DNA from: Actinomycetota bacterium
GTDB taxonomy: Bacteria; Actinomycetota; AC-67
Length of the DNA: 64,000 bases
Assembly: GCA_036398095.1 (NCBI GenBank)
Contig: DASWHR010000141.1
Coordinates: 1,138-65,137 of the forward strand
Direction of reading: 5' to 3'
A model generated the notes under the pieces. The model was not told where the DNA came from. It did no database searches and worked only from the letters and a program-made list of their open reading frames with translations. Positions 24,096 through 32,828 of the stretch are shown here, one piece after another. The position numbers and the translations under genes are program-made. The first letter of the stretch is position 1. Each line of letters starts with the position of its first letter.

Positions 24096-24793
24096 GCGCG
24101 CGTTCCGATCAAGATCTGGACGATGCCGCCGCCGGGAGTGAGGCGGCCGACGTCGCGGAAGCCGGCGCGCACGAGCATGGCGAGCATCTCGTCGGGCGTG
24201 GGAAGGTAGGCGACCGAACGCGGCAGATACGCATACGCCGCGCGGTTCGACAGCAGCCCGCCGATCATCGGCACGATCCTCTTGAAGTAGACGGCATGTC
24301 CGGCGCGCAACACCGGATTGCGCGGCTCCGCGGTCTCGAGGATCGCGACGCGTCCGCCGGGGCGAAGCGCGCGCGCCATCTCGGCGAACAGCACCGACAG
24401 ATCCGAGACGTTGCGCAGCGCGAATCCGCACGTGATCCCGGCGGCCGCGCCGTCGCGGACGGGAAGGCGAAGCGCGTCGGCTTGAGCGAGCCGCGTCAGG
24501 CCACGCTCCTTCGCGCGGACGAGCATCTCGCCGGCGAAATCCATGCCGATCGCGTGCCATCCGCGGCGCTGGACCTCGAAACAGAAATCGCCGGTTCCGC
24601 AGGCGAGGTCGAGCACGACCGCGCCGGGCTCGACACCGAGCGTGCCGGCGGCGCGGCGGCGCCAGCCGCGATCCATCCCGAAAGTCATCACGCGATTGAC
24701 GGTGTCGTAGCGCGCGGCGATCGCGTCGAACATGGCTCGCACCGCGCGGGCTTTTTCTTCGCCGGCCGGCAGCGGCGCTACTCGGCGGGCCAT
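24092..24793 (-). CDS. menG: Demethylmenaquinone methyltransferase (UbiE/MenG).
   Basis: MFDAIAARYDTVNRVMTFGMDRGWRR, the UbiE signature. SAM motif I VLDLACGTGD. ATGA overlap with the menF start. Confidence 0.85.
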
Positions 24794-25566
24794 GCCGCCT
24801 CCAGATATCCGGCGGGGCGGCGGCGCGCCTGCTCGCGCGTGGCGGCGATCTCGGCCGCGTCGCCGGTTCGCTCGATGTGCTCTTCCGCGACTTGCAGCAG
24901 CACGCGGCGGAAATGCTGTGCGACCAGCGCCGTTACGGCCGGGAGCAGATCGCCGAATGCGGCGACGAGCTTTGCGGCGGCTTCTTCGTCGGAGGACGCG
25001 GCGCGTTTGATCGGGGTACGCACGTATTCGTCGAACAGGCGGACCGCTTCTTCGGCGATGGATCGGGTCGCGTCGTGCTGCGCGCGGGCGAGCGCGATCA
25101 GCTCGCCAAGCGGCAGGCCGGCCGACAGCAGCCGCAAGCCGGTGCGAACCAGTTCGGCGTCGGAGGCCGCGTAGCGCGTTTGGCCGTCGATCGAGCGGCC
25201 GATCGGCAGGCCTTCCCGTTCGATCGAGGCGAGCAGCGGCGCCGGGACGCCCGATCGCTCGGCCAGCTCGTCGAGCGTGATGAACTCTTCGGGGTCGCCG
25301 TCGGTCTGCGCCGACGCGACGGCGGCGGCCAGATCCTGATCGGGTTTGGCGAGCCGGCCGGAGACCACTCGCGCCACGGCCTGCAAGGTCAAGCCCTTCC
25401 CCTGCAGGGCGCGGATGCGCCGGATCCGCTCGGCGTGATCCTTGGAGTACAGGGCGACGCGGCCGCTGCGACGCGGCGGCGGCAACAACCCTTTCGCCTG
25501 GTAGAAGCGGATCGTGTCGACACTCACGTCGCACGCCGCCGCCAGTTGCTCGACCCGATACTCCAC
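24778..25566 (-). CDS. MerR-family transcriptional regulator.
   Basis: N-terminal MerR HTH (YRVEQLAAACDVSVDTIRFYQAKGLL). Confidence 0.75.
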   Translation of the reverse strand: MEYRVEQLAAACDVSVDTIRFYQAKGLLPPPRRSGRVALYSKDHAERIRRIRALQGKGLTLQAVARVVSGRLAKPDQDLAAAVASAQTDGDPEEFITLDELAERSGVPAPLLASIEREGLPIGRSIDGQTRYAASDAELVRTGLRLLSAGLPLGELIALARAQHDATRSIAEEAVRLFDEYVRTPIKRAASSDEEAAAKLVAAFGDLLPAVTALVAQHFRRVLLQVAEEHIERTGDAAEIAATREQARRRPAGYLEAAWPAE

Positions 25567-25621
25567 GACCAGGGACTCTACGAGTAATCACTCACAGCGT
25601 CCACTCGCTGCGAGGAGAGTC

Positions 25622-27376: not shown

Positions 27377-28534
27377 GTGAGGATTCGCAGCGCGATCGTC
27401 GCCGTCGTCGCCTTGACGCTTCTGGGAGCCGCGTGCTCCACGAAGCAAACCGGCGGCGAGGGCGGCGACAAGCAAGCCACCTACACCGTTCAGGTGGACG
27501 CACACACGCAAGGTGGCGAGTTCGGGTTCTACGCCTCGAAGTACTTTCCGGACGAGCTACAGGTTCATCCCGGCGACACGCTCGACTTCAAGCTGAACTG
27601 GTCGGGTGAGCCGCACTCGGTGACGTTCGGCACGCTCGTGGACGCAGGCGCGGCATCGCTCGATCCGTCGGCCGAGGAGGAACCGGCCGAGTGGCAGAAG
27701 ATTCCTCCGATGCTGCCCGAAGGACCGGGAGACGCGGTCCAGGCCTCCGTGAATCCCTGCTACGTCGAGACGGGCGAGCCGCCGAAAGAAGCCGCGTGCG
27801 AGAACCGCACCCAGCCGGCGACCTTCACCGGCGCCTACGCGCTCTACAGCAGCGGGTTCATGCCGGACGGCACGACGTTCAGCGTTACCTTGGATCCCGG
27901 CATCACGCCCGGCACGTACAACTACTTCTGCACGCTCCACCGCGGGATCATGACCGGCAAGGTCGAGGTCGTCGCCGCTTCCGGAACCGTGGCCGACGCG
28001 GCCGCGGTCGCCAAGAAAGCGGCCGACGAGATCGCCGGGATCGGGAGCACCCTCAAAGGCGCCTTCGACCAGTCCAAGAACGGCATGGGTCCGGGAACGC
28101 TGTTCGCGGGAACGACCAAGCCGGACCTGATCGAAGGCGGCACCGACGCCGGCGTGACCGAGTTTTTGCCCAAGCAAGCGACCGCCAAAGTCGGCGAGCC
28201 GGTCAAGTTCCTGCCCGTCGGCGCGCACACGGTCACGTTCAACGCCCCGCAGGACGCCGTCGAGTTCCTCACCAAAGCCCCCGACGGCACCTGGCACTTG
28301 AATCCCAAGGCGGCCGGCCCCGCCGGGTCTCCGCCCACCGGTCCTCCCGGCGACAAGCCGGTCGTCACGGACGCGGGAACCTGGAACGGCGAGGGATTCC
28401 TGAACTCGGGCATCCTGCTCGGGTTCGGCCCCCCCGGCGCGATCACCTGGCAGGTCACGTTCGGCACGGCCGGCTCGTACGAGTACCGCTGCCTGGTCCA
28501 TCCCGACATGGAAGGCTCGATCACCGTCGCGTAA
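27377..28534 (+). CDS. Two-domain cupredoxin (plastocyanin/azurin-like blue copper) lipoprotein.
   Basis: Signal with Cys (LLGAACS). Two type-1 Cu sites (HSVTF...YNYFCTLHRGIM and HTVTFN...YEYRCLVHPDM). GTG start. Confidence 0.75.
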   Translation: MRIRSAIVAVVALTLLGAACSTKQTGGEGGDKQATYTVQVDAHTQGGEFGFYASKYFPDELQVHPGDTLDFKLNWSGEPHSVTFGTLVDAGAASLDPSAEEEPAEWQKIPPMLPEGPGDAVQASVNPCYVETGEPPKEAACENRTQPATFTGAYALYSSGFMPDGTTFSVTLDPGITPGTYNYFCTLHRGIMTGKVEVVAASGTVADAAAVAKKAADEIAGIGSTLKGAFDQSKNGMGPGTLFAGTTKPDLIEGGTDAGVTEFLPKQATAKVGEPVKFLPVGAHTVTFNAPQDAVEFLTKAPDGTWHLNPKAAGPAGSPPTGPPGDKPVVTDAGTWNGEGFLNSGILLGFGPPGAITWQVTFGTAGSYEYRCLVHPDMEGSITVA

Positions 28535-28538
28535 GGCC

Positions 28539-31500
28539 ATGCGCGTAAGCGCGCGTCCCCCTCGGCGCGTCCGAGGGGGACGGCGTTTCGCGGCCGTCCT
28601 CGCGGTCGTCGCCGCGAGCGTGCCGGCGTGGACCGCAGCCGGCGGCCCGGACACGACGAAAGGCGATCGGGCAGTCGGTGCGCACGACCACGATTCGCAC
28701 GCGCACTCCCACACCGACGCCGGGCATGAGCAATCGGAAGGCTTCACGCTCGCGGCGCAGGCGGGGACGACCCCAGCCGGCAGCGCATGCAAGCCATCGA
28801 TGCCGCGGCGTGAGATCGCCCTCAGCGCGATCGCGGTCGACGTCACGCTGAATCGGTTCGGCGACCACGACCCACGCGGCCGCATGTTCGCGTTCACCGA
28901 CCTGACGGACGAGATCCGGGCGGAGGAGAAGCGCAACGCCGACGCGCGCACCGGCCGAGGCGACTACGCCGTCACGCCCGGCTTGCAGGGCGACGCGATC
29001 CAGCCGCCCGTCGTGCGAGCCCGTCCGGGCGAATGCCTTCGCCTCACGGTGCGAAACGACCTCGACGAGCCGGCGAGCCTTCACGTGCACGGCGGCGCGC
29101 TCATGGTCGGCGCCGCGCCCGCGGTCGCGACGAACCCGACGGCCACGGCCGCGCCGGGCGCGACCGTGACCTACACGTGGGCAATCCCGGCCGGCGAGCG
29201 CGAAGGGACCCACTACTTCCATTCGCACGGCGACGAGCGCGCACAAACCTCGCACGGAATGTTCGGCGCGATCGTGATCGAGCCGTCCGGCTCGCGCTGG
29301 ACCGACCCACGGACCGGCGAGGACGCCCGCGGCTGGGACGCGGTGATCACGCCTCCCGACGGCAGGGCCTTCCGCGAGTTCGCGTTGTTCTATCACGAGG
29401 TGGGCGACGAGCAGTACCAGTTGAGAGCCGCCGACGACAGCCTCGTTCCGCTCGTCGATCCGCTCCTGTCCGCGTACCGCCCCGGATCGCGGGCCATCAA
29501 CTTCCGCAGCGAGCCGTTCATGAACCGGATGCGTCTGCAGCAACGACTGACCGGCCGCTTCGACGAGTCGCTTGCATATTCGTCCTATGCCTTCGGCGAT
29601 CCGGCGACCCCGATTCTGCGCGCCTACCTGGGCGAACCGGTGAAGCAGCGGCTCGTGCACGGCGGCAGCGAGGTCTTCCACGTGCACCACGTCCACGGCG
29701 GATCGATCCGCTGGCGTCGCCAGCCCGACGCCGATTCCTCTCCGGTCAACGCGGGCCTGGACAAGCGTCCGCCGCTTACGCCCGTCGCCTCGGAGCGCAC
29801 CGACTCGCAGTCGATCGGGCCGTCGGAGACCTTCGACATCGCCGGCGACTGCGGCGCCGGCGGCTGTCAGCAATCCGCGGGCGACTTCTTGGTTCATTGC
29901 CACGTCGCCCATCACTATTTCGCAGGCATGTGGGGCATCTGGCGCGTCTACAACACGCTCCAGGACGGCTCCGCCTCGACCGACGCGCTGCCGCCGCTGC
30001 CGCCACTGCGCGCCGGCACCGTGGTTGCGGCGGTAACGTCTTCGGCGCTGGCCGGCCGGAGCGTGACCTTCGCCGGACGCGCGCGCACCGTCGCCGATGC
30101 ATCGGAATGGGCGGCGATGCAGCTGCCGCCGGCCGGCCCGCCCGGCGAATACGACGCGTCGGTCTGGGATTGGCGCGTCGAGGGCGGGATCGTGGTGGGC
30201 GAGCCCGAGGACGCGCGCCGATGGCCGGGACATGCCCCGGCCGCGCCCGGCCGCAGGCCCCCGATCTTGTTCGATCCGCAGACCGGGCTGCTTGCCTATC
30301 CGTTCCTGCGGCCGCAGCTCGGCCGGCGGCCGCCGTTCGCGCCCGGCCACGCCCCCTCGCCGTTCCTGGACCCCGGCCTGGGGCCCGATCCGCCCGCGCC
30401 CGGAGCCTCCGGCCCTGCGAGCCTGTGCCCGGCGGGCACGACGATCCGCACGTTCTTCGTCAACGCCGTCTCGCTGGCGGTCCCGCTCAATCGCCGTGCC
30501 GGCCTGACCGATCCGAGCGGGCAGCTCTACGTGCTCGCCGAGGACGAAGCGGCCGCGCGCGCGAACCCGGCGCTCCGCGGTCCGCTTGCGATCCGCGCCA
30601 ACGCCTCCGAGGATTGCGTGGACGTGGTGCTCGCATCCTCGATCCCGGACGGACCGATCAACCACAGATTCTCGAAGGTGAATCTTCACATTCACTTCGT
30701 CCAGTTCGACGTCCAAGCCTCCGACGGTGTCGTCAACGGCTTCAACTACGAGCAGTCGGTCCGTCCCTACACGGCTGATCCGGTGACGGCACGCGCCGCG
30801 GCCGCGGGCGCGCCCGGCGTCACCGTGTCGGCCGCCGGCCGCTTCCGTCCGGGGATCGTCGTGGGGATCGGTCTGGGCACCGACCGCTTCGAAGCGCGAC
30901 GCATCTCCCGGATCGAGGGCACCCGGCTGATCTTGGACGCACCGCTCGCGCGCTCGCATCCCGACGGCGAGATCGTCTCCACCGAGTTCGTTCGCTACCG
31001 CTGGTACCCGGACGTACAGTCGGGGACGGCATACTTCCACGACCACGTCAACGCGATCGCATCGTGGCGACACGGATTGTTCGGCGCGCTCGTCGTCGAA
31101 CCGCCCGGATCCACCTATCACGATCCCGCGAGCGGCACACAGATCCGCAGCGGCGCGATCGCCGACATCGTCACTAACGCGCGCGTTTCGGCCGACGTCA
31201 CCGGATCGTTCCGCGAGGCGGTGCTGTTCTTGCAGGACGACCAGCCGATCGGACACGAAGGCCGGTCGAGCGGCAGCGCCATCAACCAGCGAATCGAGCC
31301 GCTTCGCGGCCGCGATCCCCCGCCCCGCGCATTCGCCAGCACCCGCGGCGATCCCGAGACGCCGCTGATCCGGGCGCACCTGGGCGATCCCGTCGTGGTA
31401 CGCACGCTCGTGGCCGGCACCAACGACATCCACACGATCCACGTGGACGGCCACTGGTTCCGGCTCGAGCCGTGGAGCCGCTCGTCGCGACCGGTTTCGA

Positions 31501-32828
31501 CGGCGCGAATCGGGATCTCGGAGCGAATGGACCTCGTGTTGCCGGCCGCCGGCGGCCCGCAACGCATGCCGGGCGACTATCTGTATACCAACGGCCGCGC
31601 GTTCAAGATTCGCGAAGGATCGTGGGGTCTGCTTCGCGTGCTCGACCCGAGCGACGAGTCGATCCGCGCGCTCCCCGGACGCGAACCGGCGACGCCGGCG
31701 ACGAGCGTGTGTCCCCCCGGCGCGCCGACGCGGCGGTTCCGTGCGGCCGCGGTTCCCGCGACGATCCCATCCCTGGGAGGCGAGGCCGCGGCATTCGTCG
31801 CCGAAAGCGCGCGCAGCGCCGTCGAAGCCGGCGGCCTTCCGGAGCCGTTCGTGCTTCGCGCATCGGTCGGCGACTGCATCGAGGTCTCGCTGGCCAACGC
31901 GACCGGCGCGCCCGTGTCGCTGCATGCCGATTTGCTCGCCTACGACCCATCGTCCTCGGCCGGGGTGGCCGCGGGGAGCGAGCCCGTGCAGGCGGCCGCG
32001 CCCGGGACCTCGCGCACCTACACGTTCTTCGCATCACCGGAGATCGGCGAGACGGTCGCCATGCTGCGCGACGGCGCCGATCTCGCGGGCGGCTCGCGGC
32101 GCGGCTTGCACGGCGCCGTGGTCGTCGGTCCCCCCGGGACCGTCTATCGCGATCCTCGGACCGGCGCCGAGACATCGTCAGGGTGGCTGACGGACGCGGT
32201 CGTACCCGGCCGCACGGCGTGGCGGGACGCGGTGCTGCTGTGGATCGATGACGACGCCGGCTTGGGAACCCACCGGATGCCGTACTCCACGGCGGTCGGG
32301 GGCGCGGTTGCGGTCAACGGCCGAACCGAGCCGCTGCGCGAACGACGCGCCACCGACTCAAAGACCGCGCGCGCCTACGATCCCGCCACGCACGGCGATC
32401 CGGCGACTCCGCTGATCCGTGCGGAGGCCGGCGATGCGATCCGCATCGCGGTCCTGGTCCCGTCGGGCGAGCAGGTGCAGGTCTTCTCCGTCGAAGGCCA
32501 CCGCTGGCCTATCGAGCCGGGGATGCGCGGGAGCGCTCTGGTGTCTTCGGCGGCGGTCGGCGGCTTGGACGCGATGGTGGCGAGGTTCCGGGCCGGCGCG
32601 CCTGCCGATTATCTTTGGGTCAACCACCGCATCCCGTATCTGGAGGCGGGAATGTGGGGACTGCTGCGCGTTCGCGACTGCGGCGCCGCCGGGATCGATC
32701 ACCTGCCCGGGTCGCCGTGCGACGGAATCGGGATCGGCGTCGCCGGGATCGCGGCCGCGGCGCTGGCCGCCGGGCTCGGCGCCTATGCGGTGCATCGTCG
32801 TCGCCGCGGCCGGCGCGCAACCGCTTAA
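28539..32828 (+). CDS. Giant (1429 aa) secreted multicopper oxidase built from three tandem two-cupredoxin units, with a C-terminal hydrophobic anchor and Arg-rich tail.
   Basis: Unit 1 carries the full ligand set (LHVHGG, HYFHSHG, FHVHHVHGG, HCHVAHHYFAGMWGIWRV). Units 2 and 3 end in GSWGLLRV / AGMWGLLRV and keep HxH motifs but lack the HCH cysteine. C-terminus GIGIGVAGIAAAALAAGLGAYAVHRRRRGRR. Confidence 0.8.
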   Translation: MRVSARPPRRVRGGRRFAAVLAVVAASVPAWTAAGGPDTTKGDRAVGAHDHDSHAHSHTDAGHEQSEGFTLAAQAGTTPAGSACKPSMPRREIALSAIAVDVTLNRFGDHDPRGRMFAFTDLTDEIRAEEKRNADARTGRGDYAVTPGLQGDAIQPPVVRARPGECLRLTVRNDLDEPASLHVHGGALMVGAAPAVATNPTATAAPGATVTYTWAIPAGEREGTHYFHSHGDERAQTSHGMFGAIVIEPSGSRWTDPRTGEDARGWDAVITPPDGRAFREFALFYHEVGDEQYQLRAADDSLVPLVDPLLSAYRPGSRAINFRSEPFMNRMRLQQRLTGRFDESLAYSSYAFGDPATPILRAYLGEPVKQRLVHGGSEVFHVHHVHGGSIRWRRQPDADSSPVNAGLDKRPPLTPVASERTDSQSIGPSETFDIAGDCGAGGCQQSAGDFLVHCHVAHHYFAGMWGIWRVYNTLQDGSASTDALPPLPPLRAGTVVAAVTSSALAGRSVTFAGRARTVADASEWAAMQLPPAGPPGEYDASVWDWRVEGGIVVGEPEDARRWPGHAPAAPGRRPPILFDPQTGLLAYPFLRPQLGRRPPFAPGHAPSPFLDPGLGPDPPAPGASGPASLCPAGTTIRTFFVNAVSLAVPLNRRAGLTDPSGQLYVLAEDEAAARANPALRGPLAIRANASEDCVDVVLASSIPDGPINHRFSKVNLHIHFVQFDVQASDGVVNGFNYEQSVRPYTADPVTARAAAAGAPGVTVSAAGRFRPGIVVGIGLGTDRFEARRISRIEGTRLILDAPLARSHPDGEIVSTEFVRYRWYPDVQSGTAYFHDHVNAIASWRHGLFGALVVEPPGSTYHDPASGTQIRSGAIADIVTNARVSADVTGSFREAVLFLQDDQPIGHEGRSSGSAINQRIEPLRGRDPPPRAFASTRGDPETPLIRAHLGDPVVVRTLVAGTNDIHTIHVDGHWFRLEPWSRSSRPVSTARIGISERMDLVLPAAGGPQRMPGDYLYTNGRAFKIREGSWGLLRVLDPSDESIRALPGREPATPATSVCPPGAPTRRFRAAAVPATIPSLGGEAAAFVAESARSAVEAGGLPEPFVLRASVGDCIEVSLANATGAPVSLHADLLAYDPSSSAGVAAGSEPVQAAAPGTSRTYTFFASPEIGETVAMLRDGADLAGGSRRGLHGAVVVGPPGTVYRDPRTGAETSSGWLTDAVVPGRTAWRDAVLLWIDDDAGLGTHRMPYSTAVGGAVAVNGRTEPLRERRATDSKTARAYDPATHGDPATPLIRAEAGDAIRIAVLVPSGEQVQVFSVEGHRWPIEPGMRGSALVSSAAVGGLDAMVARFRAGAPADYLWVNHRIPYLEAGMWGLLRVRDCGAAGIDHLPGSPCDGIGIGVAGIAAAALAAGLGAYAVHRRRRGRRATA

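Follow-up and report, generated by a model that had tools for sequence, protein, structure and literature searches.

Single catalytic copper set in a six-domain oxidase

The gene at positions 28539..32828 of a 64,000-nt stretch of an Actinomycetota genome (GenBank assembly GCA_036398095.1, contig DASWHR010000141.1, positions 1,138 to 65,137; the whole stretch is called the window here) encodes a 1429-aa multicopper oxidase (MCO) of the MnxG type with six cupredoxin domains (D1 to D6). The assignment was made from its open reading frame (ORF), Pfam matches to Cu-oxidase_3 and Cu-oxidase_2, a match to Protein Data Bank (PDB) entry 9bxa, and Foldseek searches with an AlphaFold2 (AF2) model. All features described below lie on the + strand unless stated otherwise. 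The ligand map shows a single complete type 1 (T1) copper site, predicted in D2 (H381, C454, H459, and M464), and a single predicted trinuclear centre (TNC) of eight His at the D2/D3 interface (H384, H386, H453, and H455 from D2; H717, H719, H834, and H836 from D3), for which the geometry is adopted from homologous enzymes. We consider it probable that the protein is an MnxG-type oxidase that takes up electrons at the D2 T1 copper, with a metal ion as the favored donor and a blue-copper lipoprotein encoded directly upstream as an accessory. The architecture is nearly certain, and it is the choice of substrate that holds the reading as a whole at probable.

The ligand map was obtained by unit-to-unit alignments anchored on genuine laccase motifs. 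Conservation was evaluated in 120 homologues, in 75 aligned proteins from GTDB species, and in superfamily representatives at 35-50% identity, of which the long members were aligned by hmmalign to the family hidden Markov model (HMM). In D2, the L3 motif H381-V-H-H384-V-H386 (29679..29696) contributes H381 as a T1 ligand and H384 and H386 as TNC ligands. These three residues are invariant in the 120 homologues and the 75 GTDB-species proteins, and H383 is retained in 119/120 homologues. The L4 motif H453-C454-H455-x3-H459-x4-M464 (HCHVAHHYFAGM, aa 453-464; 29895..29930), which aligns to the laccase motif HCHIVEHEDRGM, provides the Cys, His, and Met of the T1 site together with two TNC His. H453, C454, H455, and H459 are invariant in the 120 homologues, M464 is invariant in a second family alignment, and the full L4 set is unchanged in the 75 GTDB-species proteins. 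The remaining four TNC ligands are assigned to D3, in H717-I-H719 (L1; 30687..30695) and H834-D-H836 (L2; 31038..31046), and all of them are invariant (120/120). The T1 set and the eight TNC His are also kept in nearly all of the superfamily representatives at 35-50% identity. The MCO motif set (L1-L4; 10 His, 1 Cys, and 1 Met) is complete, with L3 and L4 in D2 and L1 and L2 in D3, and both the ligand map and the conservation point to a lone T1 site in D2 with the TNC between D2 and D3.

The other domains carry parts of the same motifs. D1 retains H182-V-H184 (L1; 29082..29090), which aligns to the laccase HWHG motif and whose two His are conserved in 108/120 (90%) and 120/120 homologues, and H228-S-H230 (L2; 29220..29228), which aligns to the laccase L2 motif and is conserved in 117/120 (97.5%) and 98/120 (82%), respectively. 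In D4, alignment of unit 1 with unit 2 by hhalign placed an L3 remnant at H965-T-I-H968-V-D970-G-H972 (31431..31454), in which H965, H968, D970, and H972 are invariant in the clade of at least 50% identity and variable across the wider superfamily. The L4 motif of D4 is degenerate (LYTNGRAFKIREGS, aa 1015-1028; 31581..31622), HCH being replaced with T-N-G and the axial Met with Ser. D5 has an L1 remnant, H1129-A-D1131 (31923..31931; H1129 in 106/120, D1131 nearly invariant), and an L2 remnant, L1176-R-D1178 (32064..32072), in which D1178 is invariant. A gapless D4-D6 alignment located the L3 remnant of D6 at Q1314..S1317-V-E1319-G-H1321 (32478..32501; H1321 in 119/120), and its E/D-H-H pattern is present in 169 of ~190 sequences. 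The degenerate L4 of D6, V1361-N-H1363...M1372 (32619..32654), keeps only the third residue of HCH (H1363 in 108/120).

An earlier note generated by a model from the sequence alone (the original prediction) had proposed that the HCHxxxHxxxxM site is kept in the first unit only. This was borne out, since the Cys of HCH is replaced with Asn in both D4 (T-N-G) and D6 (V-N-H). Mapping of the ligands against laccases, a check that the note had suggested, placed the T1 and TNC ligands and found units 2 and 3 degenerate, as it had claimed. The strings that it quoted are in place, at aa 453-464 (HCHVAHHYFAGM), 463-472 (GMWGIWRVYN), 1015-1028 (LYTNGRAFKIREGS), 1027-1036 (GSWGLLRVLD), 1362-1372 (NHRIPYLEAGM), and 1371-1380 (GMWGLLRVRD). 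The statement that units 2 and 3 both retain HxH pairs was correct for unit 2 (H717-I-H719 and H834-D-H836) and wrong for unit 3: unit 1 has such pairs starting at residues 182, 228, 381/384, and 453, unit 2 has two (starting at 717 and 834), and none was found in unit 3 or anywhere past aa 836. Its description of repeats 2 and 3 as degenerate or trinuclear-only holds insofar as both units are degenerate and D3 of unit 2 gives four of the eight TNC His. A reading with three oxidase modules, each active by itself, was rejected on the basis of the ligand map.

Triplication of a two-domain unit and the six-domain fold

The protein consists of three homologous units, each of two domains, in one chain, as is characteristic of six-domain bacterial oxidases of the MnxG type. 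Unit 1 (D1 and D2; aa 84-472; 28788..29954), delimited by hhalign and BLASTP, contains, in D2, the sole T1 site and one half of the TNC. Unit 2 (D3 and D4; aa 630-1036; 30426..31646) contributes the other half of the TNC through D3, and its D4 has no T1 Cys. Unit 3 (D5 and D6; aa 1058-1380; 31710..32678) has neither an HxH pair nor a T1 site. When the units were compared as single sequences by BLASTP, significant matches were obtained for units 1 and 2 (E=5e-26, 31% identity over 321), units 1 and 3 (E=3e-23, 28% over 323), and units 2 and 3 (E=2e-32, 36% over 225). Alignment of the family profiles of the units by hhalign gave E values of 4.7e-44, 3.8e-48, and 3.5e-48 over ~315-319 columns. 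The triplication claimed in the original prediction is thus upheld by both methods (3e-23 to 2e-32 by BLASTP and ~1e-44 to 1e-48 by hhalign). The self-comparison that it had named as a check was uninformative when applied to the whole protein, for which self-BLASTP returned the identity match only; the repeat becomes visible only when the units are compared separately. Its three segments of ~400 aa are homologous and are not equal in length, as the boundaries given above show.

The triplication is further supported by recurring details. Each unit closes with G-x-W-G-x-x-R-V, and each odd domain has an invariant pair of Cys at equivalent positions, C84/C166 in D1 (codons 28788-28790/29034-29036), C630/C693 in D3 (30426-30428/30615-30617), and C1058/C1113 in D5 (31710-31712/31875-31877). 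These pairs probably form one disulfide per odd domain, which fits with an extracytoplasmic protein. A conserved and structured linker of ~157 aa connects D2 and D3 (aa 473-629; 29955..30425), and D3 has a beta-rich insert of 72 aa (aa 744-815; 30768..30983). In the AF2 model, the linker has a predicted local distance difference test score (pLDDT) of ~87-94 and beta hairpins, and the insert has a pLDDT of 93-96. H604 in the linker (30348-30350) and H807 in the insert (30957-30959; 120/120) are invariant, and both are kept in most relatives at 40-50% identity. An invariant C438-x4-C443 loop (window 29850-29867) is situated ten residues ahead of the HCH of D2, and part of the superfamily has Gly or Val there. 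It might form a disulfide or contact a metal or a substrate beside the blue copper.

The AF2 model, built from an alignment of 119 sequences, covers aa 179-1378 of a six-domain core of ~1290 aa and leaves out aa 84-178 of D1. Its mean pLDDT is 91.5 and its predicted template modeling (TM) score is 0.92. Searching the PDB with Foldseek gave as the top match chain A of 9bxa ('Mnx H340A complex from Bacillus sp. PL-12'; E=1.7e-81, TM 0.73/0.72, 23% identity), followed by rat and human ceruloplasmin (TM 0.50-0.59, 11-12% identity) and coagulation factors V and VIII, and two-domain laccases fit single units with a TMt of ~0.7. A sequence search of the PDB also found MnxG (9bxa, E=1.3e-102). Modeling, which the original prediction had proposed as a further check, thus confirmed a six-domain ring with the ceruloplasmin/MnxG fold at the level of the predicted structure, in which D4, D5, and D6 are shown as structural copies that close the pseudo-threefold ring. 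Pfam detects the oxidase within unit 1 only (Cu-oxidase_3, 2e-25; Cu-oxidase_2, 4.5e-13); together with the beta-rich model and Foldseek matches that are solely of MCO type, these matches identify the cupredoxin fold of an MCO. These data are best explained by an origin of the six-domain oxidase from a laccase-like unit of two domains that was triplicated long ago.

Comparison with known copper proteins

The copper layout of the oxidase is the already published bacterial layout, and the central point has already been described. In all prokaryotic six-domain MCOs analyzed by Vasin et al. (2013; PMC3600357), the mononuclear site is in D2 only and the TNC is at D2/D3, whereas in ceruloplasmin three domains (D2, D4, and D6) have T1 sites and the TNC lies at D1/D6. 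The same study described residual ligands at other interfaces in the prokaryotic six-domain copper proteins and presumed that six-domain proteins originated by triplication of a two-domain MCO (PMC3600357). Two features of the present oxidase are less ordinary: its conserved blue-copper partner and what is probably the remnant of a second metal site.

MnxG of Bacillus sp. PL-12 is colinear with the present oxidase over six cupredoxin domains in three two-domain units (TM 0.73). Its ligand positions were read through a HMMER alignment to the deposited 9bxa sequence, which has Ala at the T1 His position because it is the H340A mutant. Both proteins have a lone HCH/T1 site in D2, and MnxG likewise has the HxH...HDH pattern in D3 (FHIHF and FFHDH) with the TNC at D2/D3. 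However, several differences were found. Bacillus MnxG works with an MnxE3F3 hexamer (PMC5622069), whereas a di-cupredoxin lipoprotein is encoded beside the oxidase here. The L1 and L2 motifs of D1 are lost in MnxG (MHFQ and FFTDLGN) but kept here, and D6 reads HTFHLHGH in MnxG as opposed to QVFSVEGH here. In addition, the present oxidase has the 72-aa D3 insert with H807, which is absent from MnxG (MnxG residues 555->557 span the site), a D2-D3 linker longer by ~74 aa that includes H604 (MnxG alignment 360->404), the CxxxxC loop by the T1 site, and a C-terminal membrane anchor.

The triangular six-domain fold is shared with ceruloplasmin and hephaestin (TM 0.50-0.59), and the L1 and L2 His of D1, which form half of the ceruloplasmin TNC, are still present. 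In contrast to ceruloplasmin, the oxidase has its T1 site in D2 only, its TNC at D2/D3, and fragmentary D6 ligands, and the identity is 11-12%. T1 sites corresponding to those in D4 and D6 of ceruloplasmin were not found, Asn standing in place of Cys in both domains (TNG and VNH), and neither was an eight-His D1/D6 TNC, for which H1363 is the sole canonical D6 ligand of four. The ceruloplasmin-like architecture of the original prediction therefore applies to the fold (with 9bxa closer, at TM 0.73) and not to the copper layout. Each unit resembles the protomer of two-domain laccases (SLAC type, Streptomyces), with L1 and L2 in the first domain and L3 and L4 in the second; PDB matches to these laccases were obtained on D1, D2, and D5, and their TMt to a single unit is ~0.7. 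The TNC of the SLAC trimer lies between adjacent protomers, as it does between adjacent units here. The SLAC homotrimer, however, has three T1 sites and three TNCs, whereas the single fused chain has degenerated in two of its three site sets. The large proteobacterial manganese oxidases (Pseudomonas putida MnxG, MofA; NF041487) are multi-domain MCOs of the same superfamily and give weak matches. Since they differ in length and domain count and the NF041487 score is 123.7 against 3100 bits, the present oxidase is not their equivalog.

Blue-copper lipoprotein encoded upstream

The gene directly upstream (27377..28534) encodes a lipoprotein of 385 aa with two plastocyanin/amicyanin-like cupredoxin domains and a lipobox Cys (Cys20). 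It matches Pfam Copper-bind and the NCBIfam plastocyanin/amicyanin family, and both halves match plastocyanin or amicyanin in the PDB. The T1 ligand set is complete in each domain (H80/C185/H188/M192 and H284/C372/H375/M378), and these ligands and Cys20 are conserved in 42-45/46 homologues (Cys20 in 45/46). Only 4 nt separate the stop codon of the partner from the start codon of the oxidase (TAA ggcc ATG), so that the partner looks translationally coupled to the oxidase. When all ORFs of at least 90 aa in 84 oxidase loci were clustered, the partner was the sole conserved neighbor, being found in 61/84 loci and in 33 of them directly upstream on the same strand. No mnxE- or mnxF-like genes were found: the partner alone is conserved in the 84 loci, and the flanks in the window are unrelated. 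Relatives at 39-43% identity (Nitrospirota, Planctomycetota, and Alphaproteobacteria) have no partner neighbor. Since these relatives keep the copper sites without it, the partner is not essential to the enzyme type.

Electron donor of the oxidase

Sequence, conservation, and model show that a single catalytic electron path survives, from the D2 blue copper through the H-C-H bridge to the D2/D3 TNC. According to the favored reading, this blue copper would receive electrons singly, and O2 would be reduced to water at the TNC. By homology to the closest characterized relative, the likeliest donor would be a metal ion such as Mn(II). The co-transcribed lipoprotein would serve as a dedicated electron-transfer or accessory partner, or as a relay, in place of MnxE/MnxF. 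The substrate may be Mn(II), another metal ion, or the partner cupredoxin itself.

Several points weigh against this reading. Oxidase activity in the clade is predicted purely by homology, and identity to Bacillus MnxG is just ~23-30%. The NCBIfam MnxG equivalog model NF041487 scored 123.7 bits in seven partial stretches, far below its cut-off of 3100. Because MnxE and MnxF, which Bacillus MnxG requires, are absent, Mn(II) specificity is not simply transferable. A dedicated cupredoxin with two sites would fit protein-to-protein electron transfer as readily as metal oxidation. The ligand geometry at D2/D3 and D6/D1 is a deduced one, and the co-loss statistics described below were corrected for phylogeny by a parsimony count only. 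Two homologues are named 'manganese oxidase' by the Joint Genome Institute (JGI), which is an automatic annotation.

The main rival is that the protein is a cupredoxin:oxygen oxidoreductase, for which we allow a smaller but still serious chance. Here the donor would be the co-encoded lipoprotein, fed by the respiratory chain or by another extracytoplasmic oxidase, and the pair would form a membrane-tethered, non-pumping branch of terminal oxidation. In favor of this reading, the two complete T1 sites and the lipobox of the partner are maintained in 42-45/46 homologues, the partner is the sole conserved neighbor and looks translationally coupled, and both proteins are predicted to be located on the outside of the membrane. 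The MCO fold is also that of copper nitrite reductases, which receive electrons at T1 from pseudoazurin or azurin; in some of them a cupredoxin domain is fused to the enzyme, and 2dv6 was among the Foldseek matches. Nevertheless, the relatives at 39-43% identity have the same copper sites and no partner neighbor, no conserved quinol- or cytochrome-linked genes were found nearby in the 84 loci, and we know of no characterized MCO oxidase with a cupredoxin donor.

Putative remnant metal sites and alternative copper layouts

The His of D1 and the remaining ligand of D6 are lost together. Among ~190 family members, the counts for an intact D1 quartet against H1363 are 149/3/17/19 (uncorrected Fisher p=2e-13), and 16/17 sequences that are short of two or more D1 His also have no H1363. 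A parsimony count on a neighbor-joining tree gave approximately six independent events of coupled loss, and the coupling is repeated in distant superfamily representatives. The coupled loss indicates that the D6/D1 residues behave as one co-evolving site. This suggests that the D1 His together with E1319, H1321, and H1363 are what is left of a second metal site, vestigial or reduced, at the position occupied by the TNC in ceruloplasmin; this site probably still binds metal in most family members. In CueO and laccases, L1-His2, L2-His1, and L4-His3 are the complete set of three His that binds one of the type 3 (T3) coppers; the equivalents here would be H184, H228, and H1363, all of which are kept. 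At D4/D5, the equivalents of the type 2 (T2) ligands are kept (H968 and H1129), and three T3 positions are occupied by Asp (D970, D1131, and D1178). This His/Asp pattern, which is invariant in the clade of at least 50% identity and not beyond, might favor a harder metal, for example Mn(II).

In a 1580-aa superfamily representative (P0174), D6 also carries complete L3 and L4 motifs, as a second set (HHHH and HCHHM, in the columns of aa 1314-1321 and 1361-1372), and D1 reads HH/YH. Judging from these motifs, a second T1 site and most of a second TNC may be present in this putative six-domain oxidase, which would resemble a hypothetical ancestor.

A bolder reading, which we regard as doubtful, is that the di-blue-copper lipoprotein and the tethered oxidase form a two-component extracytoplasmic redox module with a second functional site of reduced nuclearity at D6/D1. 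In such a module, H182, H230, E1319, and H1321 may surround H184, H228, and H1363, and D4/D5 may provide another His/Asp site (H968, D970, H1129, D1131, and D1178). The metal bound at such an extra site could be substrate Mn or Fe, or else a fifth copper.

It is much less probable that unit 1 is self-contained, with a TNC made of L1 and L2 of D1 and L3 and L4 of D2, like that of D1/D3 in three-domain laccases, and that the HxH pairs of D3 are vestigial. All four motifs do occur within unit 1, to which the Pfam matches are also confined, but the D3 His are invariant in every homologue, whereas the D1 His are lost in ~19% of homologues in which T1, L3, and L4 are intact. Moreover, active Bacillus MnxG lacks L1 and L2 of D1 and has the HxH pairs of D3, the MnxG/ceruloplasmin ring (TM 0.73) sets L3 and L4 opposite L1 and L2 of the next unit, and the bacterial TNC has been published at D2/D3 (PMC3600357). 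Finally, a true ceruloplasmin-type ferroxidase with a working TNC at D1/D6 and several T1 sites, to which the four TNC-type His of D1 and the Foldseek similarity to ceruloplasmin (TM 0.50-0.59) might point, is effectively refuted by the ligand map, in which D6 has H1363 alone of L4 and all three canonical His of L3 are missing (E1319 stands in place of the third, and H1321 is found two residues further along), the T1 Cys is missing from D4 and D6, and the identity is 11-12%.

Export, anchoring, and gene neighborhood

The N-terminus of the oxidase has a predicted export signal (aa 1-33; 28539..28637), in which an Arg-rich n-region (RRVRGGRRF) is followed by a hydrophobic core (15-mer from aa 17, Kyte-Doolittle (KD) hydropathy of 2.06). 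A hydrophobic N-terminal segment is present in 85/120 homologues. From its sequence, the signal resembles a twin-arginine translocation (Tat) signal, and scans of Pfam and NCBIfam gave no Tat profile match for the oxidase. A His-rich stretch (HDHDSHAHSHTDAGHE, aa 49-63; window 28683-28727) follows the signal peptide; the family keeps only its GHE part (H63), and the stretch may serve in copper capture. Near the C-terminus, a transmembrane anchor (aa 1394-1419; 32718..32795) is predicted from 19-mers with KD values above 1.6 at aa 1394-1401 and is followed by a basic tail (RRRRGRR), and a comparable hydrophobic segment occurs in 82/120 homologues. The oxidase would thus be exported and tethered outside the membrane by its C-terminal helix.

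The window has a G+C content of ~70%. A gene call based on G+C at third codon positions (GC3) places the lipoprotein and oxidase genes (27377..28534 and 28539..32828) as a two-gene unit on the + strand between genes on the - strand. The flanks encode a MerR regulator, a luciferase-like oxidoreductase, a methyltransferase, an M20 peptidase, a GDSL hydrolase, and a two-component system, and none of these flanking genes of the window has an obvious link to copper or manganese. The gene for the MerR-family regulator (24778-25587, - strand) is ~1.8 kb upstream of the operon. Metal sensing is common among MerR regulators, and this gene is not a conserved neighbor among the 84 oxidase loci. Promoter and terminator scans gave no signal above background. 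An antisense ORF of 1134 aa that overlaps the oxidase gene (28521-31925, - strand) was rejected as a high-GC shadow, similar shadows being present at all related loci. A gene fusion or assembly artefact was likewise rejected, as the same length and architecture are found in hundreds of species.

Distribution and implications

The original prediction held that the architecture is rare in bacteria, a view contradicted by database searches. Full-length matches comprise at least 1139 clusters at 90% identity, and relatives were found in 329 GTDB species representatives. A search of a library of 1.84 billion proteins with a single-sequence query of 1200 aa gave 545 clusters at 50% identity (E<=1e-30). 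The GTDB relatives are mainly Actinomycetota (Acidimicrobiales and metagenome-assembled genomes (MAGs) of Mycobacteriales), Chloroflexota (Dehalococcoidia, SAR202, Anaerolineae, and Limnocylindria), Dormibacterota, and Rokubacteriota, and the nearest genome match (77%) is an uncultured Actinomycetota soil MAG (L004). The relatives at 39-43% identity belong to Nitrospirota/Troglogloeales, Pirellulaceae, and Alphaproteobacteria. Those at 39-41% identity include two loci of Candidatus Troglogloeales (L074 and L080) and four of Nitrospirota (L077, L079, L081, and L083), which keep the T1 site, the D2/D3 TNC, and the HxH pairs of D1 and have no cupredoxin neighbor. The order of L074 and L080 includes the manganese lithotroph Candidatus Manganitrophus. 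Two 'novel MCOs' have been reported in the core genome of the Candidatus Manganitrophus family (PMC9040806), and we make no claim that they are identical with the relatives found here.

Soil, groundwater, and marine environments are rich in this clade, which is carried there by uncultured Actinomycetota, Chloroflexota (including SAR202), and Dormibacterota. To our knowledge, the Bacillus enzyme alone is well characterized among the large MnxG-like oxidases. Metagenome and metaproteome studies use genes for such oxidases as markers of bacterial manganese oxidation (for example, PMC9477243). Should the partner prove to be the real electron donor, 'manganese oxidase' would be a misleading annotation for the genes of the present clade.

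If the oxidase and the lipoprotein do form a two-component module with a second functional site, its mechanism would be unlike those of both MnxG and ceruloplasmin, and in uncultured Actinomycetota and Chloroflexota the module might work in energy-linked metal oxidation or as a terminal oxidase fed by the cupredoxin. Should metal be bound at the D6/D1 remnant, the family would represent natural intermediates between an ancestor with several TNCs and the modern single-site enzymes, and the long-standing model of triplication and loss for six-domain copper proteins would become testable.

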